Assembly (NCBI GenBank): GCA_022766245.1
Contig: JALEPL010000031.1
Location: 4,336-68,335, forward strand
Origin: Lachnospiraceae bacterium
Lineage (GTDB): Bacteria > Bacillota > Clostridia > Lachnospirales > Lachnospiraceae
DNA: 64,000 nt
Reading direction: 5' to 3'
The first letter of the stretch is position 1. Every line of letters starts with the position of its first letter. Of this stretch, positions 7,978 to 20,435 are shown one piece after another. The notes beneath the pieces are model-generated. The model did not search any database, had not been told where the DNA came from, and saw only the letters and a program-made list of their open reading frames with translations. The position numbers and the translations under genes were made by a program.

Positions 7978-9342
7978 TTACTTTCTTCTTTTCCTGCGTT
8001 TCTTCTTCTGCGTCTGAATCCTATGGTATTTTCTTTTTCGCATCTCACTGTGAGAAATGTGCTTTCTCTGGTTCGCACGATACCACTGAAGAAACCTCCA
8101 GCCACCGTAGGCTGCACCTGACACAACAACAAGAGCCAGCAATATAATGCCCATTATTCTGACAAAAACTCCTGTCTTTTTTCCCGACTGTTTGGGACTT
8201 TCCACTTCCTCCATGACTTCAGATGATTCTTCTGCCCTGACAATTGTAACATCTGCCCCGCCAATTTCATGCGACGCATAGGTATACCCCAGAAAAGCAA
8301 TCTCGTCATTCTCTCCACTTTGTTCTTTCAGCGCTGCGGTTGCATCGGCAAATGATGCCGTCTTCGGCAATACAATGCATCCCGTTTGATCCAGCACCAC
8401 GGTATCCTCTGTTCCGGACGCATATAGTTCCTGCAGCTTTTGTTCTGTATAATACGCCTCATTCTCAGAAACATTCCACAACTGAAAATTTTCAAAAGCG
8501 GCATCAAACAGCACTGTTGTGTCCTTATACTGCATCGTTGTCTTTTCATTCAACACAACGCAAATTAAATCCATCCCATCCCGCGATGCATATGTCACCA
8601 GGGTATTTTTTGCAACATCGGTATACCCTGTCTTGCCCCCGATACATCCCTCGTACAAATACTCTGTCCCCTTGTATGAACTGAACATCTGATGATGATT
8701 CCTCAGAAAAGTTTCCTCTTCATGCTTATTGGTGGGTGGAATCGTGTATTTCTGCGTACCTATAATCGTTCGAAAGGTATCATATTTCAACGCTTCTCTG
8801 GAAATGAGTGCCATATCATAGGCGCTGGTATAATGATTCTCATCCGGCAGACCATGGGGATTTGTAAAATGAGTATTCTCGCATCCCAGTTCTTTTGCCC
8901 TGTCATTCATCATCTGGATAAAGGTATCATAATCCCCACCCACATGTTCTGCAATCGCATACGCACACTCATTTGCAGATACCAGCATCAGTGCGTACAG
9001 GCACTGCTCCATAGTCATAACCTCATCCAGATCTCTGGCGATATGAGCCCCATCTACACCATAGACCGCATTGGCAGAAAAAACCACCTCTTCATCCATA
9101 TCACAGTTCTCTATAGCCAGCAGTGCCGTCATAATCTTGGTAATACTGGCGGGATAGAGTTCCTCATGTGCGTTTTTCTCGTACAGTACAGTTCCAGTGG
9201 AAGCCTCCATCACAATGGCTGAGGGACCATCGATGGCCGGCCCGGTGGGCCAGACATCTTCTGCCCGAACCTGCATCACATTTGTCTGCATCAGATATAC
9301 CATCAGAAGCAGCAAACATTTCCATGCTTTCACTTTGTTCAT
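7978..9342 (-). CDS. D-alanyl-D-alanine carboxypeptidase (peptidase S11) with C-terminal membrane anchor
   Basis: Signal peptide (start MNKVKAWK at 9342), PASITK (SxxK), SAN (SxN), GGKTG (KTG), C-terminal TM helix and K/R-rich tail. Confidence 0.92.
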   Translation of the reverse strand: MNKVKAWKCLLLLMVYLMQTNVMQVRAEDVWPTGPAIDGPSAIVMEASTGTVLYEKNAHEELYPASITKIMTALLAIENCDMDEEVVFSANAVYGVDGAHIARDLDEVMTMEQCLYALMLVSANECAYAIAEHVGGDYDTFIQMMNDRAKELGCENTHFTNPHGLPDENHYTSAYDMALISREALKYDTFRTIIGTQKYTIPPTNKHEEETFLRNHHQMFSSYKGTEYLYEGCIGGKTGYTDVAKNTLVTYASRDGMDLICVVLNEKTTMQYKDTTVLFDAAFENFQLWNVSENEAYYTEQKLQELYASGTEDTVVLDQTGCIVLPKTASFADATAALKEQSGENDEIAFLGYTYASHEIGGADVTIVRAEESSEVMEEVESPKQSGKKTGVFVRIMGIILLALVVVSGAAYGGWRFLQWYRANQRKHISHSEMRKRKYHRIQTQKKKRRKRRK

Positions 9343-9360
9343 CTTATTCCCCCATTTATT

Positions 9361-9438
9361 GGCACGAGGTGTCACCGCAGGTGACGGATACGCCCCCAAA
9401 GGTCGCTTCGCGCTGCTTTGGGGACAAAACCTGGTGCC
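9361..9438. repeat. REP-like nested palindromic element
   Basis: Outer arms ggcacgagg/cctggtgcc (8 of 9 complementary) enclose hairpins gtcacc-gca-ggtgac and ccccaaag...ctttgggg. Single copy in the window. Confidence 0.5.
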
Positions 9439-9482
9439 GCTTCAGTTTTCATATCTGACTTTACACTTCCTTTTTACACCAT

Positions 9483-11051
9483 TTATTGTGCAGCTTCCGG
9501 TGTTGTTTCCGGCTGGGTCGCCGGGGATTCCTGTGTCTGAGTCTCCGGAGTTGGCGCTTCCTGAGCCGGAGTTTCCGCAGACGCTGCCAAAGCAGCGTCA
9601 TTCCATGCAGCGATTGCCGCATTTACCGTAGCCTCATCCTGCGTAGCAATTGCTGCATTTACCGCAGCAGATGCATTCGGATCAGCAGAAGCAGTACCAA
9701 CCAGAATCACTTTATCTGATGCCCGGTAACTGCTGGTATTAAACACCTCATTGCTCTCCACTTCCCCATTCACTGTAACGATTTTGCGGAGACGTGCTTT
9801 ATATCCTACATGTTCCGACTGATCCACAGTAGTATATCCGATCGGCTGATCCGGCGCAGCTTGATATACCACACCGGGAGTTGTGGTTGCAAGTACCTCA
9901 CTTACAAATTCCACTTTTCGGTTGCTGTCTCTGGTCTCCTCTCCGTAGACATTAAAATACACATAACCTCCGGAAGTATACCCCTCAATATAGACTGGTG
10001 AATCCAGATTATTCTTAAACTTAAAGTCCTTGTAGGTTCCTGCGATGGCAGCATCCTCCGATGGTTTTACATAGCTGACCGTCATGGAATGCGGGTAGCG
10101 CTCTATAACTTCCAGTTCTGCCCGGATTACCGCATTATACAAAGTAGTGGAAACCTGACAGATTCCGCCTCCTATAGATTCAACCACTTTTCCATTCTCG
10201 TAAGCGCCTCCCACTTCATACCCATTTTCCCGGACAAAAGGACTGGCCACTTCATACACGGAGAACTCATCTCCCGGATATAACAACGCCCCATTTATCT
10301 TAGATGTTCCATTCTGTACATTCTGCTTTCTTCCGGCATTGGAGTTCGCATAAGAAGTACGGAAGCTGCCTAATACATCTTTTACTTTGGACAATTCTTC
10401 TTCTGTATGTTCCGGTTCTACCACATCGGCCACAAGCTCCACGACAGCGCTTTTTCCGTCCCACTCAGATGCAAAGAAAGATTCTACTCCGGCAATGGAG
10501 CTCTCCACATCTACATAGATTCCTTCACTCTCCGGTATGGTAATAAATGCTCCATCTTCCCGCTTCAGCTGGGCATCCTGAACTTCAGAATTCAGAATAT
10601 CTTCGCTGTTTTCAATAAACTTAACAACCTCAGCCTTATCGATTCCGTATTCCAGAGGAAACACTTTATCTTCCCGCTCTAAATCCTTCATGGCCATATA
10701 CCGACTCAGTAGATTTCCCTTTTTGCCGATATAAGCAGCTTCTTTTAACACTTCAGGATTTTGCCAGAAAACTCCCAGTTCACCGGCTTTAGCACTTACT
10801 TCCTTGCTCCCTGCCTTAAACGTGATCTTTTCATTTCCTATCTCATCAAAATACTCTTCCACTGCCTGGGACGCTTCTTCCTGTGTCATACCACCCACGG
10901 GGATTTCACCAATAAACACACGTTCCGGTATCAGCGCATCTTGTGATTCCTCCGCACGTGCAGAAATCCCCATACAGGATCCCAGCGCCAGGCCGCAAAG
11001 GATAACTCCAGTTACCAGATACTTTTTCTTAATTTTTTTCATAGCAGCCAC
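9483..11051 (-). CDS. VanW-family cell-wall protein (PG-binding region + VanW domain + G5-like tail)
   Basis: Signal peptide, GRKQNVQNGTSKINGALLYPGDEFS, IGGGICQVSTTLYNA, ERYPHS, DAAIA, DFKFKNN; P/E/T/A-rich C-terminus. Confidence 0.88.
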   Translation of the reverse strand: MAAMKKIKKKYLVTGVILCGLALGSCMGISARAEESQDALIPERVFIGEIPVGGMTQEEASQAVEEYFDEIGNEKITFKAGSKEVSAKAGELGVFWQNPEVLKEAAYIGKKGNLLSRYMAMKDLEREDKVFPLEYGIDKAEVVKFIENSEDILNSEVQDAQLKREDGAFITIPESEGIYVDVESSIAGVESFFASEWDGKSAVVELVADVVEPEHTEEELSKVKDVLGSFRTSYANSNAGRKQNVQNGTSKINGALLYPGDEFSVYEVASPFVRENGYEVGGAYENGKVVESIGGGICQVSTTLYNAVIRAELEVIERYPHSMTVSYVKPSEDAAIAGTYKDFKFKNNLDSPVYIEGYTSGGYVYFNVYGEETRDSNRKVEFVSEVLATTTPGVVYQAAPDQPIGYTTVDQSEHVGYKARLRKIVTVNGEVESNEVFNTSSYRASDKVILVGTASADPNASAAVNAAIATQDEATVNAAIAAWNDAALAASAETPAQEAPTPETQTQESPATQPETTPEAAQ

Positions 11052-11091: not shown

Positions 11092-12930
11092 CTAAATGGA
11101 AAGCGAATACTGTTCGCACAACATAGTTACTGTCATAACAATCATAAGATAATCAATTTCATAAGCACCCATCAGTTTGAAATCACTCTGACTATATATT
11201 TTTTTCATCTTATTCACGTAATCTACATCAAATACACCGTATTTTTTTATCAATGAATCACTCAGGAATTCCTCTCCACCGCTCTGTTTTACCATAGCAG
11301 ACATTCCAGGTGCCTGAAACGGGAATTTTTTTCGTTTTAAGATTTCCTGAGGAACGATTCCTTCTGTAGCTTTTTTAATGATATATTTCTCATTGGTTCC
11401 TTTAAGCTTGTATTTGTCCGGTATGGTCAGCACAAAGGAAATCAATTCGGTATCCAGGAACGGATGTCTTCCCTCTACAGAATGTGAGAAAAACATTCGA
11501 TCGCCATGCTCTCCCAGCAAATGATCAGACAAACGAAGCTTGTAATCAATATAGGATCGTCTCTTAAAGGTGCTTAAGCCTTTTACCCGTTCCAGATTAA
11601 TGGGGCTTGTGGCAAACGCTGAGAACTGATCAATCTCCCCCCGCACATTGTCACTGTATATCTGGGTATGTATCTTTCTGATTTCAGGGTGGTTCCGCTC
11701 ATAACGGAAATAGGGATCTCCCCATAATCGTTCATTCACTTCGCACTCTTCTGCAGACATCTGATTCTTCTGCATATTTCGAAACAGATCCACCATGTAG
11801 CCGGCATATCCGTAAAAGAATTCATCGGATCCCTGACCGGTCAGAACTGCCTTTGCCGGTGATGTGCTCACCAGCTCAGACAAAAGATACGCTGCAACGT
11901 CATAGCTTTCCTTGACTGCAGACTCTGCATGATAGATTACATTCGGTATATTCTTCCAGATTTCTTTTTCTGTCACTCTGGTACTGTAATGAGTAGAATT
12001 CACATATTCACAAATAATCTTCTGGAATTGCTGCTCATTCAGATCACCGGAATCTATCTCTGCCGAAAAAGAATAATAACTGTTTAGCAGATATTTTCCA
12101 ATGTAACAAGCCACAACCGAACTGTCCAAGCCACCGGAAATATAAAATCCGATGGGCACATCTGCAATCAGTCTTCTGGAAATGGCATTCTTCAATAATT
12201 CCCGAAGCTTCTCTGCATAGTACTCCTCGCCCTTATCCTCTTCCTCAGCACTGTAAATAACATCCCAGTATTCTATATTTCTTATTTCCTGTCCTGCCAC
12301 TGCCTGAATCATATGGCCACATTCCAGAGAGTAAATTCCATCGAAAAAAGTATTGGGAGAAACCACACCGGGGAAATTCATCAGCTGATCCACAGCCTTC
12401 AGATTCAGTTTTCTGCTGGCACCGGGATACTCCAGGATTGCCTTAATCTCGGATGCAAACACCAGTTTATCATTAATCTGGCTGTAAAACAATGGACAAA
12501 TCCCCACATGATCTCTCACCAAAAGTAACTGATTGATTTTCTCATCATACAAGGCAATGGCAAACTGACCATTCAGCATCTTCGGGAAATCCATTCCCTC
12601 CTCTTCATACAGATGAAGAATAACCTCCACATCGGTTTTCGTGCGGAACACATGTCCCTTCGCAATCAAATCATCCCGAAGCTCCTGAAAGTTAAAGATT
12701 TCTCCATTACATATCATGGATATCGTCTTGTCCTCGTTTTGAATAGGCTGCATACCTCCATCCAAATCCAGAAAGCTGAGGCGATTAAAGCCTAAGGTAA
12801 TCTGCTTTAATTCCAAAGTCTGACTTCCATCCGGCCCACGATGGCGGATGGCACGAAGCATCCGTTCCACAATGTCCTTCTCTGGCTGTGTTTTCTTATT
12901 CAAACTATAAATTCCACAGATTCCACACAT
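11092..12930 (-). CDS. asnB: Asparagine synthase (glutamine-hydrolysing), AsnB family
   Basis: Ntn start MCGICG, HRGPD, CNGEIFNF, ISGGLDSS, LTGQGSDE, SVEGRHPFLD. Confidence 0.93.
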   Translation of the reverse strand: MCGICGIYSLNKKTQPEKDIVERMLRAIRHRGPDGSQTLELKQITLGFNRLSFLDLDGGMQPIQNEDKTISMICNGEIFNFQELRDDLIAKGHVFRTKTDVEVILHLYEEEGMDFPKMLNGQFAIALYDEKINQLLLVRDHVGICPLFYSQINDKLVFASEIKAILEYPGASRKLNLKAVDQLMNFPGVVSPNTFFDGIYSLECGHMIQAVAGQEIRNIEYWDVIYSAEEEDKGEEYYAEKLRELLKNAISRRLIADVPIGFYISGGLDSSVVACYIGKYLLNSYYSFSAEIDSGDLNEQQFQKIICEYVNSTHYSTRVTEKEIWKNIPNVIYHAESAVKESYDVAAYLLSELVSTSPAKAVLTGQGSDEFFYGYAGYMVDLFRNMQKNQMSAEECEVNERLWGDPYFRYERNHPEIRKIHTQIYSDNVRGEIDQFSAFATSPINLERVKGLSTFKRRSYIDYKLRLSDHLLGEHGDRMFFSHSVEGRHPFLDTELISFVLTIPDKYKLKGTNEKYIIKKATEGIVPQEILKRKKFPFQAPGMSAMVKQSGGEEFLSDSLIKKYGVFDVDYVNKMKKIYSQSDFKLMGAYEIDYLMIVMTVTMLCEQYSLSI

Positions 12931-12931
12931 T

Positions 12932-13996
12932 TTAGTTCTCCTCTTCTATCCCGTAATATTCATACTGAGCCTGCTTTTCCGCCTCGTATGCTGCGATCTT
13001 TTCCTTCCAGATTTCACACAAATGCTCCTCATTCCGCCGATCCGGCAATCCCACATCCTCTGATAAGTATTTGCCCAGATAACCGGAAAGCTTTTCTGCT
13101 CCCGAAAGGTTCATGTGAAGTCCGGCATCATATGTATCCGTACTATAATCAATTCCAATCTCATCTGTGAGCTCCAGGAAATTAATATACTCCAAATTAT
13201 GAGCTGCCGCATAGTCTTCTACCTGAGCCTCATATTCATCATACCAATACGGATAAAGACTGGGTGCCTTAATCAAAATAAGTCTGATTCCATTCTCTTC
13301 ACAAAGCGCTGTCATCATATCAAGATATTTCCATGCATTGTCACCAAAACTGTAATCTGCCAGGACCTTTCCATCCGGCACATTTTCTGCAGGTTTCACA
13401 TCCACACGCATATAGTACCCGTTATGGGTCACCTGTTTTTTTCGGAACATGTAGGTTACATCCGTTGCAGAAAGATCACTCCATCTGGTATGATATCGCA
13501 AAATAGGAAATACATAATCGAGGAAATGCTCTTCTTCTTTCATGGATGCCTGAATCGCTTTTATTTTGGAAGGCGACCACTTCATCCCCTCCAATGTCAT
13601 ACGGTTATAGGCCTCACTCTGGGACTCATTAAATTGCAGAGACTGTACATTAAAAATTACCACATCCGGCGTCTCATATCGAAGTGTGTCCTCCAGCATA
13701 TAATAAGACTGCCAGATATACTGCTCCGCACTTCCTCTGATATAGCTGTTGATTCCGTAATCTTCCCACAATACGATGGGCGAGAAATTCTCGTAAACCT
13801 CACAGTCACCTACAAAGATCACATCAAAATCCTTCTCCTGCTGGTAGTACTCTTCGATGAAAGCACCTTCTACCACTCCATCTACATACTTGGGAACAAG
13901 CAGTCTCTGTAAAAGAAATAGACTTGTCACCACCACCAATGCGGACAGAATAAATTTTATACATGCTCGTTTTTTTAACTTTCCTTTCATATCCAC
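12932..13996 (-). CDS. Membrane-anchored SGNH/GDSL-like (DltD/AlgJ/PatB-like) acyltransferase with Cys at the nucleophile position
   Basis: N-terminal TM helix; block I DVIFVGDCE (TGT codon at 13804-13802); block V YDAGLHMNLSGA; directly downstream of an MBOAT gene. Confidence 0.72.
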   Translation of the reverse strand: MDMKGKLKKRACIKFILSALVVVTSLFLLQRLLVPKYVDGVVEGAFIEEYYQQEKDFDVIFVGDCEVYENFSPIVLWEDYGINSYIRGSAEQYIWQSYYMLEDTLRYETPDVVIFNVQSLQFNESQSEAYNRMTLEGMKWSPSKIKAIQASMKEEEHFLDYVFPILRYHTRWSDLSATDVTYMFRKKQVTHNGYYMRVDVKPAENVPDGKVLADYSFGDNAWKYLDMMTALCEENGIRLILIKAPSLYPYWYDEYEAQVEDYAAAHNLEYINFLELTDEIGIDYSTDTYDAGLHMNLSGAEKLSGYLGKYLSEDVGLPDRRNEEHLCEIWKEKIAAYEAEKQAQYEYYGIEEEN

Positions 13997-14016: not shown

Positions 14017-15609
14017 CTAAAACTGATTATAAATGAACTGACTGGCATCATATCCGATACCATAGGCTCCCATCAAAAGTATCACTAAAAACAAACCATA
14101 CCATATGCAAACCCGCACCGGATATGCCTGCGCAGCAATTCTGTCTCTGACACTTCCCCGACGCTGGAGCAGACTAACTCCGAGAAGTACCATCACTCCC
14201 ATTGCTAAAATCACATAATCCAAGGCTGTAAGTCCCAGATTCATCAAGGAACCATCCCACAGGATATGCCAGTTCCCAACAGTAAACATGGACGCCAGCA
14301 TGCCAAAGGTAGTTGACAGAGCAGAATAACAGTCAAAAATATTCAGCACACACACCAGCAAAAAGGTACGTCCAATCTGAAACACTTTGTACCAGTTTTT
14401 TTCTTCAACCGGGAAACGATTGTGAAACTTTGCATAAAGAGGTTCCAGTTCCTCCGAAATCATCAATACTGCCCAGTTCAGCAATCCCCATACAATAAAA
14501 TTCCAATTGGCACCATGCCAGATTCCTGTTGCAAACCAAACCACGAAAGAAGACAGGTACAACGGAAGACGCCGTCCCACCACCTTGCCAAAATGTTTTG
14601 CAGAAAACTTAGAAAATTTCTGCATCGCCTTACAGGTAGATACCGGATAAAAGAGATAATCTCTAAACCAACTACACATGGTAATATGCCAACGACGCCA
14701 GTATTCTTTCAATGATTTTGAGAAATATGGCCGGTTAAAGTTCTCCTGCACTGTAATTCCCATAGTCTCGGCAATACCAATGGTAATATCGATTCCTCCG
14801 GTAAAATCTGCGTACAGTTCCAAAGTATAGAACAACATACCCACAAATATGTACGCACCATTATATGTCGCTGTATCCTTGATTATCGTATTCACAGCCA
14901 CAAGAATCCGATCTGCAATTACCATCTTTTTGAAATAACCCCAGAGAATTCGCTGCAGACCATAGCAGACTTTTTTGCTGTCAAAAGCATGCTCCTCATA
15001 GAGTGTCTTGCTCAAATCCGAAAAACGGCTGATTGGTCCCTGGATCAGCTGCGGGAAAAACGACACAAACAAAGCAAATTTGAATACATTTTTCTCGGCC
15101 GGATATGCCCCACGATATACATCGATGAGATATCCCACCGCCTGAAACGTATAAAAAGAGATTCCCAGCGGCAATGCCAGCGTAAGGTAAGAAAGCTGTC
15201 TGGTCTGATGGAACATGGACAGCACACCATTTACGTTGTCAATCATAAAATTAGAATACTTCACCACCGCAAGGATGCCGATATTCAAAATAATGCAGGC
15301 TGCGACCCATCTCATACGGATCTTTTTCTGCTTATCCTTATAATTCTTTTTTTCTTCTTTTGATAACTCCGCCTTATGTTCTTTTATGTATTTGCTTTGA
15401 TTATTTGCATTCGATTCTATCTTACGTGCCGTCAGATAAGTAGTCAGCGTAGTCACCAGAATATAGATTAAATATTCCGGTCCGGCTATAAAATAAAAAA
15501 CATAGCTGGCCACTAATAAAAGTGGCCACTGACATTTCTTGGGAATAAGATAATAAACTACAAATAAGATTAAAATAAAGCCTAAGAACTCATATGATGT
15601 AAAGAGCAT
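14017..15609 (-). CDS. MBOAT family acyltransferase (DltB/AlgI/PatA-like) with fused DltX-like tail
   Basis: LPLGISFYTFQ, FFPQLIQGPI, ENFNRPY, EYWRRWHIT, catalytic His in TGIWHGA, C-terminal FIYNQF. Confidence 0.95.
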   Translation of the reverse strand: MLFTSYEFLGFILILFVVYYLIPKKCQWPLLLVASYVFYFIAGPEYLIYILVTTLTTYLTARKIESNANNQSKYIKEHKAELSKEEKKNYKDKQKKIRMRWVAACIILNIGILAVVKYSNFMIDNVNGVLSMFHQTRQLSYLTLALPLGISFYTFQAVGYLIDVYRGAYPAEKNVFKFALFVSFFPQLIQGPISRFSDLSKTLYEEHAFDSKKVCYGLQRILWGYFKKMVIADRILVAVNTIIKDTATYNGAYIFVGMLFYTLELYADFTGGIDITIGIAETMGITVQENFNRPYFSKSLKEYWRRWHITMCSWFRDYLFYPVSTCKAMQKFSKFSAKHFGKVVGRRLPLYLSSFVVWFATGIWHGANWNFIVWGLLNWAVLMISEELEPLYAKFHNRFPVEEKNWYKVFQIGRTFLLVCVLNIFDCYSALSTTFGMLASMFTVGNWHILWDGSLMNLGLTALDYVILAMGVMVLLGVSLLQRRGSVRDRIAAQAYPVRVCIWYGLFLVILLMGAYGIGYDASQFIYNQF

Positions 15610-15635: not shown

Positions 15636-16232
15636 TTAATTCAAAACAGGGGAATCGTACTCAATAGATGCGATATCCTCACCATTCAGAATGAAACACA
15701 GTTTTGTACCATTATTTTCATAGGTAATGCTTTTATCTGTTTCCTGATAATCAGAGCCGTAAGCGGCAATAATATCATCCTTTGTCATGGACAAATCGAT
15801 TCCCTCAGGAGTTGACACACTGTCATCCTTTAAAATAATGGATGCAATCAAATCCTGTTCTCCATCCGGATAAGTCTCAATCTGGAAACCGGAATAGGTA
15901 TAAATCTTAGCAATTCCCTGTGCGGCACAGCTGGGCTGCTCAAAATAGCTGTCCGGCTCTCCTAATGCATCCACGATACTACTCATATCCATGTCTACAG
16001 CAATTTCAACACCATTGCTTTCAAACACAAAGCCTGAAGCGATCTCTGCATCTGCCTCTGCATCATCTGCCACTGCGTCATCTGCTGCTGTATTCTCTGT
16101 AGAAGTCTCCACACTGCTATCCGTGACATTGCTGTCTGCCTGGGTAGCACCATCAGACCCACAACCAGCCAGCATACACATACCTAATACACATACACAT
16201 GCAAGCGTATTTTTTACTCCTCTGTACTTCAT
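15636..16232 (-). CDS. Lipoprotein of unknown function
   Basis: Lipobox LAG-C, acidic low-complexity linker, compact domain with IVDALGEP and LSMTKDDIIAAYG motifs. Confidence 0.75.
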   Translation of the reverse strand: MKYRGVKNTLACVCVLGMCMLAGCGSDGATQADSNVTDSSVETSTENTAADDAVADDAEADAEIASGFVFESNGVEIAVDMDMSSIVDALGEPDSYFEQPSCAAQGIAKIYTYSGFQIETYPDGEQDLIASIILKDDSVSTPEGIDLSMTKDDIIAAYGSDYQETDKSITYENNGTKLCFILNGEDIASIEYDSPVLN

Positions 16233-16266: not shown

Positions 16267-16509
16267 TTAGTCCTCGTCCATCAGACTGCTGATTAACTCG
16301 CACAGTGCATCCAGCGAATTAAAGTTTTCCGGAACAATCTTGTCCGCTGAAATCACCACATCAAACTCATCGTTAATGTCTGATATCAGTGTGACAATGT
16401 CAAAAGAATCCAGCACCTTGCCGTCAACCAGTTCGGTACAGTTCTCAAAGTCCTCATCCGGATGTAATCCCTCTAAAATCTCTAATAATGTGCTTCTAAT
16501 TTCTTCCAT
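16267..16509 (-). CDS. Acyl/aminoacyl carrier protein (DltC-like)
   Basis: 80 aa, highly acidic, phosphopantetheine site in VLDSFDIV, PENFNSLDAL; overlaps the upstream adenylation gene by 14 bp. Confidence 0.92.
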   Translation of the reverse strand: MEEIRSTLLEILEGLHPDEDFENCTELVDGKVLDSFDIVTLISDINDEFDVVISADKIVPENFNSLDALCELISSLMDED

Positions 16510-18016
16510 TTTTTTTCTCTCCCTTGTACATATTTTTTAATAAAACGCGATTGATTTTTCCATTCGCGGTGAATGGCATTTCTTCTAACTGTTCCACATG
16601 ATTCGGTATCATGTAACGAGGAAGCATGCTTTTCAGCTTCGTAACCAATTCCCTAGATGTAATATTACCTACATAGTACAATACAATCTTGCCCTTTTCT
16701 CCATCATAAACACAGCAACAAAGCTTAATTTCCTCAATTGTATTCACATTAGCCTCTATCTCACCAAGCTCAATTCGATGTCCCATGTGCTTAATCTGGT
16801 AATCCTTTCTGGACACAAACACAAGCTCACCATACTCATTATACTTTCCAATATCACCTGTCCGGTAAATAATTTCCGGATATGCCGTATTTAAAGGATT
16901 CTGTACAAAAGCCTCGGATGTTTTCTGTGGGTTGTTGTAATATCCCAGAGTAACTGCGGTTCCACGGATACAGATTTCTCCCTCATTTGCCAGCTTATTC
17001 TCCTCATCCAATAGCAGAATCTCTGTATTTTGAAATGGTCTTCCGATGGGAATCGGCTCATTCTCCTGCAATTCCCGTTCCAAGCGGTAATAACAGCACA
17101 TACCGGTACCCTCGGTAGGACCGTACAGATTCACAAAGGATGCCTCCGGCAATGCCTCTCTCCAGATTCGGTACTGCTTAATCGGAAATACTTCACTTCC
17201 AAACGCAATGGTCTTCAGATATTCCGGTTTGACCATCTGGAAGGTTCCAAAGGCCGATATCATGGTCAATGCTGACACAACCCAGCATATGGTATTTACC
17301 TTATGTTCATTTAAAAACTCTACCAGCTTAGCCGGGAACATAAATAAACTCTTTGGCACAATATAGGTGGTAGCGCCAAACTTCAGAGTCGGATAGATTT
17401 CCTTTAAGCACGCATCAAAATACAACGGGGTCTGATTTGCAAATACAGTATCCTCATTAAACTGCAGAACCTCGGACAACTGCTCAATATAGTCAATGAC
17501 TGACCGATGACAGGCTACAACCCCCTTGGGTACTCCGGTAGAACCAGAAGTGAATACAATGTATATCGGATCTATATCCAGAGCATTTTTTCTGATTACG
17601 TCCAATGCCTTTGCATCCTCCGGTGTTTTGATAATTTCATCATACAGGCAAATCTCACCCTGATAATGGAAGGTCTCTGCTTTTTTCTTTGTATTTTCGT
17701 CACATATAATCAGTTCTGCCTTACAATTCTCCAGAATCAAATCAATTCTGCTCTGAGGCATTTCCTCATCAATGGGCACATAAAAGCATCCTGACGTAAT
17801 AACACCTAAAAACGCAATGATAGTTTTGGGATGTTTCTCCATAAAAACCACCACCGGTTTTCTGTATAGCCCCTTCTCATGAATATACGTACCAATGGAA
17901 TGACTCTGCTCATAAACCTGCGCAAAAGTATAGCCTTCCTTTTCGTTGGCATATGCCACTTTATCCGGCACCCTTTTCACAATCGCATCCAAATAGGACA
18001 AAACATTATTTTCCAT
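16496..18016 (-). CDS. Stand-alone amino-acid adenylation enzyme (DltA-like fold, pocket not D-Ala-like)
   Basis: FTSGSTGVPKGV (A3), YFDACL (A4), NLYGPTE (A5), YRTGD (A7), GHRIELGEIE (A8), TANGKINR (A10). Confidence 0.93.
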   Translation of the reverse strand: MENNVLSYLDAIVKRVPDKVAYANEKEGYTFAQVYEQSHSIGTYIHEKGLYRKPVVVFMEKHPKTIIAFLGVITSGCFYVPIDEEMPQSRIDLILENCKAELIICDENTKKKAETFHYQGEICLYDEIIKTPEDAKALDVIRKNALDIDPIYIVFTSGSTGVPKGVVACHRSVIDYIEQLSEVLQFNEDTVFANQTPLYFDACLKEIYPTLKFGATTYIVPKSLFMFPAKLVEFLNEHKVNTICWVVSALTMISAFGTFQMVKPEYLKTIAFGSEVFPIKQYRIWREALPEASFVNLYGPTEGTGMCCYYRLERELQENEPIPIGRPFQNTEILLLDEENKLANEGEICIRGTAVTLGYYNNPQKTSEAFVQNPLNTAYPEIIYRTGDIGKYNEYGELVFVSRKDYQIKHMGHRIELGEIEANVNTIEEIKLCCCVYDGEKGKIVLYYVGNITSRELVTKLKSMLPRYMIPNHVEQLEEMPFTANGKINRVLLKNMYKGEKKNGRN

Positions 18017-18045: not shown

Positions 18046-18771
18046 TTACCTCGTGATCAGTTGATGATACTCCTCTTTCAACGTACCGCATAACTCCACG
18101 GAACATTTTGCCAAAACCTGCATTGCATCCAGATATCCTGCCCCGATTTGTTCATCTCTTCTTATCATGGAAAGCTCGGTACAGCCCAAAACAATTACCT
18201 GAGCCCCCTTTTGCCGCAATTCCTCCGACACCCGTTGAAACCGGTCCATTTCAGCAGGTTTTGTGGCCTTCACATTCTGATAAATCAGATGCATCACATC
18301 TTTCTGCCCATGTTCTTCCGGCAGAATCACTTCGATATTTCTAGCCTGCAGCGACTTTTGAAACAAACCGCTCTGTACGGTTCCATCTGTGGCCATAAGT
18401 CCCACTCTTTTAACATTTTGTATTTCTAAATAATTCGTGGTCTCTTCAATGATATTGATGATGGGTGCCGGAATCTCCCTAGACAACTCATCATAAAAAT
18501 AACTGGCAGTAATACAGGGAATGGCAATTACTTCTGCACCATAATCCACCAGATGTTTTCCCACTTCCACCATGGGAACTTTTGGATTCTCGCTGCTATG
18601 CCCCACAATATAACTGGTTCTATCGGGGATAGACGGACAATTATGTATCATCATCTCAATATGTTCCTGGTCCGTATCCGCCTTTGTCATTTCAATCACC
18701 ATCTGCATGAAAAAAGCCGTTGCCATAGGCCCCAGGCCGCCAATCACACCCAATGTATGCATTCTAAACAC
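18046..18771 (-). CDS. Aspartate/glutamate-type amino-acid racemase
   Basis: LGVIGGLGPMAT, PDRT, two catalytic Cys in IAIPCITA and LGCTELS. Start may be MHTL at 18762. Confidence 0.9.
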   Translation of the reverse strand: MFRMHTLGVIGGLGPMATAFFMQMVIEMTKADTDQEHIEMMIHNCPSIPDRTSYIVGHSSENPKVPMVEVGKHLVDYGAEVIAIPCITASYFYDELSREIPAPIINIIEETTNYLEIQNVKRVGLMATDGTVQSGLFQKSLQARNIEVILPEEHGQKDVMHLIYQNVKATKPAEMDRFQRVSEELRQKGAQVIVLGCTELSMIRRDEQIGAGYLDAMQVLAKCSVELCGTLKEEYHQLITR

Positions 18772-18797: not shown

Positions 18798-20198
18798 TTA
18801 TTGTATCGTAGGATATGCGGACGGATCATAGGCATGGCTTCCGTTATGTGTATTGGAATATGCCATAATCTCTTCATCCGAACAATAGAAGAATGTCTTT
18901 CCATCTACTCTTCTGGTGCAATCGAAGTGATACCAGCCCTCTCCCAAATCAATCAGATTCCAATAATGGGTTCGCCGTGGATTAGAAAAACCAATATCCA
19001 TATTATTAATTCCTGCTCTGGTCAATAAGCACTTTGATGTGGATGCATACACAAAACAATCACCCTTCTGGTAAAACAGTCCACGATAAGCTCCCTGTAC
19101 CCAGTTTGTTTTGGGTGTCCCATCCGACCAACCCACATGACTGTTTACCCAGTTAAATATCGCTTTTGCTTTATCATACTGGCTCATTTCCGGAGTTGTA
19201 ATCTGTGCCAGTACCTCATCAGCCTTCGCATTAACAATTTCCTCCGTGGCAGTTTCCACCCCTGCAGGTTTCACATGAACCTTGGTGGATTCTTCCGTCA
19301 CATTTCCCGCTGCATCCTTGGCAATATATGTAACATTATAATCTCCCACCTTGTTCAGATCCACTTCACTGCTATCGATTGTAAGCTGCACATTCTCATC
19401 ATAGTCATCCGTTACCGTTACATTCTTCTTATAGGATATGCTGCCACCCACAGCAACAGACAATTCCTTTACTCCCTCTATAACCGGAGGTTCCGTGTCT
19501 TCCAACACATCCATCACCGTACAGACCTTAACCGTATTTCCACCCTCATCTGTCACATACAATGAAACCGCCTGCTTTCCGGCAGCTGAAAAATCCGGCG
19601 TTTCCACGAACTCTGCCATCGTTGCTGTCACATCTTCGACTGTCTCAATAAAATCATCCGGCTCCAATACCTCGTCCTTGAAGGTCTGTGCTTCCTTTGC
19701 CTCCACAACAGGTGCGATTGTATCCGTCACATGAAGCAAGGATGTATATTCTTTCCCGGAAATGGTGATTCCAATCTCATAATCAGCCACCGTGTTCAGA
19801 TTCAGTTCATCCTCCCAGGGCTCTGAGAAATCGGCCTCCACATACCCATGTGTCAAAAACTCTGACAGTGCCGGAAAGTTTGCTCCCGCCTCAATTGTAA
19901 TCTCATCCACGACGCCTGGTCGGATAACCAGATACATCACAGCGGCAACCAGAACTATCAGCACAGACTGAGCAAATCTGCTTTTCCCAGCAGAATGCTC
20001 TTTCCGATATCGTTTTATCTTTACATTCGACTTGCTCTTTTTCTGTTTTTTTAATGAATTCTCGTCCGGTTTCGCGCCTGACTGATGTTTCTTTCTATCA
20101 CGCTTTTCCCGTTCACTCTGTTCTCTTTTCTGACGCTTTGCCCTTTTTTTCTTTTTCCGGTCAATGCAGTCATGCATCTCTATTTTTTTATCAATCAT
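18798..20198 (-). CDS. Membrane-anchored protein with Ig-like repeats and a C-terminal transglutaminase-like domain
   Basis: K/R-rich N-terminus, one TM helix, repeats (DTIAPVV / DTEPPVIEG...DDYD...Y.VTY.AKDAAGN), catalytic triad GDC-FVYA / HYWN / YHFD. Confidence 0.85.
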   Translation of the reverse strand: MIDKKIEMHDCIDRKKKKRAKRQKREQSEREKRDRKKHQSGAKPDENSLKKQKKSKSNVKIKRYRKEHSAGKSRFAQSVLIVLVAAVMYLVIRPGVVDEITIEAGANFPALSEFLTHGYVEADFSEPWEDELNLNTVADYEIGITISGKEYTSLLHVTDTIAPVVEAKEAQTFKDEVLEPDDFIETVEDVTATMAEFVETPDFSAAGKQAVSLYVTDEGGNTVKVCTVMDVLEDTEPPVIEGVKELSVAVGGSISYKKNVTVTDDYDENVQLTIDSSEVDLNKVGDYNVTYIAKDAAGNVTEESTKVHVKPAGVETATEEIVNAKADEVLAQITTPEMSQYDKAKAIFNWVNSHVGWSDGTPKTNWVQGAYRGLFYQKGDCFVYASTSKCLLTRAGINNMDIGFSNPRRTHYWNLIDLGEGWYHFDCTRRVDGKTFFYCSDEEIMAYSNTHNGSHAYDPSAYPTIQ

Positions 20199-20243: not shown

Positions 20244-20272
20244 AGGATATCATCATTTACTATTCTTGTCAA
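20244..20272 (-). promoter_or_regulatory. Putative sigma-A promoter at the head of the cell-envelope operon
   Basis: Minus strand TTGACA (20272-20267), 17-bp spacer, extended TGa-TATCCT (20249-20244). Confidence 0.55.
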
Positions 20273-20435
20273 GGGATGCGCTCCCCATGATCACTGGATA
20301 AAAACGCCGAAACAGGGCGTTGAAACAGGGCGTTTTTAGCCCTCTATCATATATATTAAGACATATTTTTCCACATGTTTTTTATGCAAAACAAAAAAAC
20401 CGGAACAAACCGTTCCGGTAAATATTCGGGGAGTA

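Follow-up and report, generated by a model that had tools for sequence, protein, structure and literature searches.

A minus-strand gene in a 64,000-nucleotide stretch of DNA from Lachnospiraceae bacterium (GenBank assembly GCA_022766245.1, contig JALEPL010000031.1, positions 4,336 to 68,335; this whole stretch is referred to here as the window) encodes a membrane-anchored protein, predicted to have the SGNH fold, in which a cysteine, Cys65, holds the nucleophile position. We consider it likely that the protein serves as the terminal, extracytoplasmic acyltransferase in an MBOAT-SGNH relay, that is, as the counterpart of DltD, PatB and AlgJ, with the catalytic Ser replaced by Cys65. MBOAT-SGNH relays (Dlt, Pat, Alg and Oat) are a general bacterial route to the acylation of envelope polymers and, to our knowledge, those that have been characterised all use a Ser on the SGNH protein. 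A literature search returned no description of the system found here, of a function for DUF1574 (the Pfam family closest to the SGNH protein) or of an SGNH protein with a naturally occurring Cys nucleophile. What is new here is a probable MBOAT-SGNH relay that combines a Cys nucleophile with a carrier-protein feed, a shuttle motif fused to the MBOAT, and two further Cys-bearing ectoproteins.

Cys65 occupies the nucleophile position of the SGNH protein

The features of the SGNH gene are listed below. Coordinates are those of the window, and residues are numbered along the 354-amino-acid open reading frame (ORF) that begins with the GTG at 13996.

12932-13996, minus strand: candidate Cys65 SGNH acyltransferase, N-terminally membrane-anchored, 354 amino acids, borderline DUF1574-like (from the ORF, AlphaFold2 (AF2) and Foldseek)
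13898-13969, minus strand: N-terminal transmembrane anchor, approximately residues 10-33 (AF2 helix 3-33 and sequence)
13799-13810, minus strand: block I, G63-D64-C65-E66, encoded by GGT GAC TGT GAG (DNA read directly)
13802-13804, minus strand: codon of Cys65, within block I
13115-13129, minus strand: block V, D290-A-G-L-H294, of the form D-x3-H (sequence and alignments)

The true start of the ORF is probably the ATG two codons downstream of the GTG, because relatives are 350-352 amino acids long and M3 is nearly invariant. The translation contains VIFVGDCEVYENF and TDTYDAGLHMN. The anchor is preceded by the basic stretch KGKLKKR, from which, by the positive-inside rule, the catalytic domain would face the outside of the cell.

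An earlier note on this DNA had described an SGNH/DltD-like protein with GDCE in block I, where a Ser is expected, and with an intact D-x(2-3)-H block, and each of these descriptions is borne out. The codons for GDCE are present in the minus-strand DNA at the position given above. When 158 relatives are aligned with MAFFT, the nucleophile column contains Ser in 107 sequences and Cys in 50, and in the best full-length representatives it is either Ser or Cys, with no third residue. His294, the putative general base of the active site, is present in 107/107 Ser-type relatives and in 92% of the Cys-clade rows, and the Cys-clade rows that lack it seem to be entries with a truncation or a frameshift. 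The conservation of D290 and of D287 is at least 90%. Family-wide, the conserved residues are H294, D290, D287, N296 and G299, and those common to Cys and Ser relatives are H294, N296, G299, P245, H169, R171, D179 and K144. G88, which comes after strand 84-88 and is the candidate block II Gly of an oxyanion hole, is found in 100% of the Cys clade, the corresponding residue being G, A or S in the Ser relatives.

The AF2 model of the protein, made from an 80-sequence alignment, has a predicted local distance difference test (pLDDT) score of 96.4 and a predicted template modelling (pTM) score of 0.92. In the model, strand 59-63 leads directly into helix 65-70, with Cys65 as the first residue of the helix, which is the arrangement of an SGNH nucleophile elbow. 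A large helical insertion, or cap, spans approximately residues 117-218 and is followed by strands 238-243 and 269-272, the loop that carries the His, and helix 297-315. The fold is predicted to be that of the SGNH proteins, a three-layer alpha/beta/alpha arrangement with a parallel sheet, and the family would be a distant one without a solved structure. Searched by itself against the sequences of the PDB, the protein had no meaningful match. A profile of the family did give weak PDB alignments, which were used only for the register of blocks I and V; these placed 'DVlflGsSevy' on the 'VVFMGNS' of block I, and 'DggnHLN' on the 'DGVHPN' of block V, in GDSL proteins of solved structure. The alignment column, the elbow in the AF2 model and the weak profile alignment together place Cys65 in the SGNH nucleophile position.

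We also considered a disulfide between Cys65 and Cys232. Such a bond is unlikely because the two residues lie at opposite edges of the sheet (in the model topology, Cys65 comes after strand 1, at its C-terminal end, and C232 before strand 238-243, at its N-terminal end) and because C232 is equally conserved in Ser-type relatives.

Foldseek comparison of the model with the PDB returned GDSL/SGNH hydrolases, TesA, DltD (6pfx, 6o93 and 3bma) and PatB (7tlv) with a probability of ~1.0. The template modelling (TM) scores were modest, at 0.55-0.73 on the target for GDSL/SGNH structures, and the best matches were acylhydrolases and TesA. The longest structural alignments were those to DltD, to which the likeness is remote (TM about 0.39). 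SGNH proteins being mostly hydrolases, these top matches might be taken to mean that the protein removes the acyl group, as a thioesterase, esterase or amidase with a hydrolytic or editing role, or even that it is an inactive scaffold. We regard this as very improbable. In nearly every locus (see below) the protein has the DltD/PatB position, right behind an MBOAT that carries a shuttle motif; its N-terminal anchor and helical cap (residues 117-218) resemble those of DltD-type transferases, and the longest alignments are those to DltD; and the catalytic residues are conserved, hence the protein is no pseudoenzyme.

The Pfam matches of the SGNH protein were all sub-threshold and consisted of DUF1574 (residues 14-58) and Lipase_GDSL_2 (residues 250-301). 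For DUF1574 (PF07611) the score was 23.9 bits, when compared to a gathering threshold of 29.1, and the catalytic blocks lie outside the match. A search of NCBIfam with the SGNH protein gave no match. Close relatives of the protein are nevertheless named DUF1574 by NCBI and Pfam, and two of them have a precomputed PF07611 match; in the window, the sub-threshold match covers a non-catalytic part. DUF1574 is a family of the SGNH clan for which neither a function nor a structure is known (PMC9487903).

The cysteine is conserved across a clade of gut and rumen Clostridia

We found GDCE in all of the 120 closest database proteins (74-98% identity). A HMMER scan of 1.8 billion representatives gave 6,846 clusters at E<=1e-3. 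In the alignment of the best full-length representatives, the sequences with at least ~39% identity to the query all have GDCE and the more distant ones have G[SDNTA]S. In a tree of the 158 sequences, the main group of Cys proteins forms one clade with a support of 97. At least two changes between Ser and Cys are needed on this tree, the second of them being accounted for by a pair of proteins, P0177 and P0182, with GSC. This second, independent Cys lineage is seen at a locus (L071:712-3828) where two tandem SGNH paralogues with G[ST]CN adjoin an MBOAT that ends in FIYGAF. (At the same locus, one of the G[ST]CN paralogues is split into two ORFs, and the other, P0177, has a C-terminal ILEI-like segment.)

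The Cys codons of the Cys clade comprise 48 TGC and 43 TGT, and the Ser relatives use AGC, AGT or TCC, each of which is one step from a Cys codon. The Cys clade is present in 22 of the 151 genera that were sampled from the window's own family and, across the class, in 44/401 genomes, 20/217 genera and 9 families. Among the readable loci of named, species-level genomes, GDCE was found in 79/79. The named carriers include Acetatifactor, Butyrivibrio, Roseburia, Agathobacter, Lachnoclostridium, Oscillibacter and Faecousia, and all carriers of the Cys-type SGNH protein are gut or rumen Clostridia. Cultured organisms with relatives of the protein are Acetatifactor muris, strain D16-50, and isolates of Agathobacter, Roseburia and Butyrivibrio. 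No reversion to Ser was found inside the Cys clade among 48 representatives and ~100 genome loci. A number of residues switch together with Cys65, namely G44, Y50, D64, E66, R87, E108, Y130 and Y252. These findings support the idea that the Cys substitution is ancient and under purifying selection, beyond what chance or sequencing error would give. The deep clade, its spread over 9 families, the uniform GDCE of the named genomes and the use of both Cys codons exclude that the Cys is a one-off substitution, an outcome that the earlier note had held would tell against its reading.

The genes beside the SGNH gene encode a probable Dlt-like donor pathway

The SGNH gene lies in a run of minus-strand genes that are separated by gaps of -14 to 40 bp. 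In the order of the strand, these encode a transglutaminase-like protein, a racemase, an adenylation enzyme, a carrier protein, a lipoprotein, the MBOAT, the SGNH protein and AsnB.

20399-20419: strong terminator, upstream of the promoter-like site
20244-20272, minus strand: promoter-like site TTGACA-17-TATCCT with extended TG, upstream of the first gene (consensus match only)
18798-20198, minus strand: membrane-anchored ectoprotein with immunoglobulin (Ig)-like repeats and a transglutaminase-core domain (Pfam), the Cys381-His412-Asp426 triad being intact
18046-18771, minus strand: Asp/Glu-family racemase of the aspartate-racemase subfamily (Pfam and NCBIfam)
16496-18016, minus strand: free-standing amino-acid adenylation enzyme of the DltA/nonribosomal peptide synthetase (NRPS) A-domain type (TIGR01733 above cut-off, DltA models below)
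16267-16509, minus strand: carrier protein, 80 amino acids, like DltC or acyl carrier protein (ACP), with the serine of a DSFD motif (Pfam PP-binding; weak NCBIfam ACP/DltC)
15636-16232, minus strand: lipoprotein with lipobox LAGC, a disordered acidic linker and a tandem alpha/beta BLIP/YjgB-like domain of ~125 amino acids (alignment, AF2 and Foldseek)
14017-15609, minus strand: MBOAT, 530 amino acids, of AlgI/PatA-like length, with a WHIT His motif and two extra C-terminal transmembrane helices (Pfam MBOAT)
14020-14037, minus strand: C-terminal hexapeptide F-I-Y-N-Q-F of the MBOAT, which fits FXYXXF (sequence)
11092-12930, minus strand: AsnB-type glutamine amidotransferase, cluster-specific, starting 1 bp after the SGNH stop (TIGR01536)

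The MBOAT matches the NCBIfam model for DltB, TIGR04091, below its cut-off. The sequence SQFIYNQF at its C-terminus is kept in all of the Cys-clade loci examined that have an intact MBOAT. FXYXXF is an acyl-tyrosine shuttle motif, and experiments on DltX and PatA, both of which have it at the C-terminal end, have shown that it carries acyl-Tyr (PMC12148441). A search for the DltD family (PF04914) found no member in the genome, the SGNH protein included, and detected the B. subtilis and L. lactis controls; likewise, no second DltA was found in the genome.

In the PDB, the adenylation enzyme matched LgrA best, followed by DltA and GrsA. Its substrate pocket begins F-D-A-C-L-K, in which, with the motif mapped by hand, Asp235, Ala236 and Lys239 can be recognised (GrsA numbering), and FDACLKE is conserved in the adenylation enzymes of Cys-clade loci. 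The acyl group in the window is probably an acidic D-amino acid, with D-Asp as the simplest candidate, because the pocket has Lys239 and the adjacent gene encodes an Asp-type racemase. The racemase reaches 211 bits with two models, that of the aspartate-racemase subfamily and that of CuyB, a cysteate racemase (cut-off 190). (Note that, by NCBI rules, the gene at 18046-18771 could be named 'cysteate racemase'.)

The AsnB gene of the window is the sole asnB-like gene of the genome. Orthologues with at least 73% identity occur solely inside these clusters, and the other AsnB matches in genomes of the family are paralogues with at most 39% identity; we therefore rejected the possibility that AsnB is a housekeeping asparagine synthetase. 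Plausibly, AsnB is a late accessory that converts Asp to Asn somewhere in the path. (In one rearranged cluster, L042, the AsnB gene lies in the middle.) Downstream of AsnB, genes for a VanW/G5-domain protein and a DD-carboxypeptidase (7978-11051, minus strand) prolong the gene run with short gaps. These were considered as members of the system and rejected, since they are conserved neighbours in 1/52 loci.

A lipoprotein is the most faithful partner of the Cys-type protein

Gene context was surveyed at 22 orthologous loci of the family sample and at 80 in named genomes, and the counts of partners are for the 52 loci with enough flank. The gene for the Cys-type SGNH protein adjoins an MBOAT gene in essentially all loci. 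The lipoprotein is encoded in 52/52 of the well-flanked loci, the adenylation enzyme and carrier protein in 47/52, and the transglutaminase-like protein in 45/52 (the 7 without it include Oscillibacter-type clusters). The racemase is found in 37/52 and AsnB in 25/52.

When these contexts are mapped onto the tree of the Cys clade, three layers can be distinguished. In the basal layer (L137, L139-L142, L148-L152, L049 and L052), the clusters consist of the transglutaminase-like protein, the MBOAT, the SGNH protein with GDCE and the lipoprotein alone, there being no adenylation enzyme, carrier protein or racemase; their MBOAT is ~33% identical to that of the window. A large subclade of the Cys clade carries the adenylation and carrier module. 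AsnB is confined to a derived subclade (40/54 loci), together with one other locus. Because AsnB occurs in that derived subclade and the basal clusters are without a racemase, the Cys is tied to neither gene; the earlier idea that the Cys might co-occur with racemase and asnB operons thus did not hold, the Cys itself being clade-wide. A genome-wide search for a DltA homologue in six genomes with basal clusters found none in 4/6, and the donor in basal clusters is probably an acyl-CoA. R87, E66 and E108, which we had considered as possible binders of the charged groups of D-Asp, were dropped from consideration as they are kept in the basal clusters, where the adenylation and carrier module is absent. 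(At one locus, L020 / L049 (G085:C44), the SGNH orthologue contains an in-frame TGA and TAA and the MBOAT is short, with the degenerate tail FIYGNM, so that the cluster looks like a decaying copy; at L148, two overlapping ORFs make up the MBOAT.)

The domain of the lipoprotein was modelled by AF2 with a pLDDT of about 97 as a tandem strand-helix-sheet repeat. Foldseek (4ifa, 4ygt, 2qzb and 3d4e) indicates that it resembles YjgB/DUF4309, YfeY, a domain of a B. anthracis SCP protein, and BLIP-like proteins. The motif E98..S101-C102-A103 is invariant in the alignment, and Cys102 is present in 94/94 homologues, as SCA in 87 and as x-C-A/G in the rest. In the model Cys102 is exposed, in a hairpin loop between strands 95-100 and 107-113. 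The lipoprotein could be a carrier, an acceptor, a regulator or an inhibitor. The Cys-His-Asp triad of the transglutaminase-like protein is kept in 19/19 loci checked; a PDB search with this protein gave no match.

Both of these partners also occur fused to the SGNH protein. In P0122, P0123, P0126, P0127 and P0134, a Cys-type SGNH protein is fused to the lipoprotein domain, and in P0124 (Cys) and P0157 (Ser, with GDSD; L072:918-2750) the SGNH protein is joined to Ig-like and transglutaminase-core domains instead. Of the Ser-type relatives, P0157 is the one closest to the Cys clade, and a gene for a lipoprotein with SCA adjoins it. The partnership with the lipoprotein and the transglutaminase-like protein may thus be older than the Ser-to-Cys switch, or at least would not depend strictly on the Cys. 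The Ser-type relatives are otherwise mostly bare MBOAT-SGNH pairs. A few Ser-type loci (L053, L054 and L068-L070) have an adenylation enzyme and a carrier protein, and are without the racemase, the transglutaminase-like protein and the lipoprotein.

The Ser-type relatives bear on the idea that Cys65 is simply an interchangeable nucleophile, tolerated in strict anaerobes, and that the system O-acylates a wall glycopolymer with no mechanistic consequence of the switch. This is possible, if on the unlikely side. That Ser-type relatives exist with an adenylation enzyme, a carrier and an MBOAT, and that the Ser-type P0157 has the same partners, would both be expected if the two nucleophiles were equivalent, as would the facts that all other conserved residues are common to the Ser and Cys lineages, that one base change from AGY or TCY suffices and that the carriers are all gut or rumen Clostridia. 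Against equivalence stand the zero reversions to Ser in the 48 representatives and about 100 genome loci, and the co-variation of the Cys with D64, E66, R87, E108, Y130 and Y252 and with a dedicated lipoprotein that bears an invariant Cys of its own. The absence of reversion in ~150 sequences, the co-varying positions and the obligatory Cys-bearing lipoprotein argue that the Ser-to-Cys switch is a real functional shift rather than neutral drift.

A thioester relay is proposed for the system

Given an ancient Cys that appears to be under purifying selection, and with the His and Asp retained, a Cys-His(-Asp) site that forms a thioester acyl-enzyme is the natural reading. The relay that we propose would run as follows. 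The racemase would make an acidic D-amino acid, most likely D-Asp, and the adenylation enzyme would load it as a thioester onto the 80-amino-acid carrier protein. The MBOAT would then carry the group across the membrane and deliver it to the Tyr in the FIYNQF tail at its own C-terminus. From there the group would be accepted by Cys65, activated by His294 (with Asp290 or Asp287), as a thioester acyl-enzyme, and it would be passed on to a nucleophile of the cell envelope. The lipoprotein, which has an invariant and exposed Cys, would take part in the last step, as would in most cases the transglutaminase-like ectoenzyme with its Cys-His-Asp triad.

Several points weigh against this scheme or limit its reach. 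The spacing of block V is D-x3-H, and the canonical spacing is D-x2-H; in addition, we looked for a conserved block III Asn, the other oxyanion-hole donor of SGNH enzymes, and identified none. With the Pfam and NCBIfam results below threshold, it is the predicted fold that places the protein in the SGNH family, and it is from its position that Cys65 is taken to form a putative thioester. The racemase passes the CuyB model too, so that D-cysteate or D-Glu stay candidates for the acyl group. Moreover, the acyl group is expected to differ across the Cys clade, because the basal clusters are without the adenylation enzyme, carrier and racemase and 4/6 of their genomes searched gave no DltA homologue; the assignment of D-Asp would thus be limited to the larger subclade. 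Finally, P0157 has the same partners with a Ser, which argues that the Cys is not strictly needed for the partnership.

As regards the linkage to the acceptor, we lean towards an O-ester on a wall polymer, at somewhat below an even chance, over an amide. The alternative is that, in the same relay, the thioester on Cys65 (alone or via the Cys of the lipoprotein or of the transglutaminase-like protein) is resolved by an amine to give a base-stable extracellular amide, the candidate amines being a side chain of a peptidoglycan stem peptide, an amino sugar or a protein Lys; taken as a whole, we think this alternative rather unlikely. It draws on the three extracytoplasmic core proteins with an invariant Cys (Cys65, Cys102 of the lipoprotein and Cys381 of the transglutaminase-like protein), on the fusions of the SGNH protein to the transglutaminase-like and lipoprotein domains, and on the preference of thioesters for aminolysis over hydrolysis. 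Transglutaminase-fold enzymes use thioesters and some of them form isopeptide bonds, but bacterial transglutaminase-like proteins are mostly hydrolases, and the gene for this one is absent from 7/52 of the well-flanked loci. The VanW and DD-carboxypeptidase genes, which lie downstream in the gene run of the window and would speak for the amide, have that position in 1/52 loci only, and the Ser-type P0157 has the same partners as the Cys-type proteins. Moreover, the characterised MBOAT-SGNH pairs all produce O-esters (PMC12148441, PMC9487903).

The step from a Cys nucleophile to an amine acceptor, which the earlier note had taken, is chemically not compelling, because some Ser enzymes make amides, some Cys enzymes make esters, and P0157 has the same partnership with a Ser. 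Ser-dependent D,D-transpeptidases, for example, make amides, and the Cys-dependent LRAT and polyhydroxyalkanoate (PHA) synthase make esters. The conserved, sometimes fused transglutaminase-like partner is circumstantial evidence that keeps the idea of an amide alive. In its most specific form, the idea is that of a thiol relay, from the Tyr of the MBOAT to Cys65, to Cys102 and on to Cys381, with an amide formed on peptidoglycan, an amino sugar or a surface protein. We think such a relay doubtful; if true, it would form extracellular amide bonds with D-amino acids, independently of ATP, in abundant gut commensals.

Discussion

The proposed relay is closest in its parts to the Dlt pathway (DltA-DltC-DltB-DltX-DltD), which D-alanylates teichoic acids. 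In both systems an N-terminally anchored extracytoplasmic SGNH protein acts, or would act, after an MBOAT; the amino-acid donor comes from a free-standing adenylation enzyme and a small carrier protein; and an FXYXXF acyl-Tyr shuttle lies between the MBOAT and the SGNH protein. The two differ in several respects. DltD has a catalytic Ser where the protein studied here has a Cys, and the latter has no DltD Pfam match. The motif resides in the microprotein DltX in the Dlt pathway, whereas here it is fused to the MBOAT and there is no separate DltX. The substrate of the Dlt pathway is D-Ala, whereas the Lys239 pocket and the Asp-type racemase suggest that the substrate here is probably not D-Ala. 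Furthermore, the lipoprotein with its invariant Cys and the transglutaminase-like protein are extra partners that the Dlt pathway does not have.

The system also resembles PatA/PatB, AlgI/AlgJ/AlgX and PatA1/PatB1, which likewise have a long MBOAT with two extra transmembrane helices and an FXYXXF end (PMC12148441), and in which the SGNH partner likewise takes the acyl group. Like the basal clusters of transglutaminase-like protein, MBOAT, SGNH protein and lipoprotein, these pairs have no carrier module. They differ from the system of the window in having a Ser nucleophile, an acetyl-CoA donor and no carrier protein, whereas an adenylation enzyme and a carrier feed the relay of the window. Outside Dlt, MBOAT/SGNH pathways do without a carrier protein (PMC12148441), and, in recent mechanistic papers, the shuttle motif is fused to the MBOAT only in non-Dlt systems. 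To find a carrier-protein feed and a fused shuttle motif in one clade therefore breaks published rules.

Replacement of Ser by Cys has analogues in other folds. PhaC (in its lipase box), the Cys-type NRPS thioesterases such as ObiF1, and the L,D-transpeptidases as opposed to the D,D-transpeptidases are examples. In PhaC, ObiF1 and the L,D-transpeptidases, a Cys-His-Asp site transfers an acyl group rather than hydrolysing it; as the folds and substrates are others, the analogy is one of chemistry only. The same holds for the likeness to L,D-transpeptidases and transglutaminases, since the protein has an SGNH fold and neither a YkuD nor a papain-like one.

The acylation of the envelope sets resistance to cationic peptides and lysozyme and shapes recognition by the host. 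The switch from Ser to Cys is found in thousands of proteins of Lachnospiraceae, Oscillospiraceae and their relatives in the guts of humans, mice and ruminants. If the Cys is merely an equivalent nucleophile, it nonetheless provides a clean marker of a Dlt-like system not described before. If the Cys alters the product or permits a hand-over to the partner proteins, then the system would represent a natural experiment on Ser versus Cys in the SGNH scaffold and, for these commensals, a new modification of the envelope, probably with D-Asp or D-Asn.

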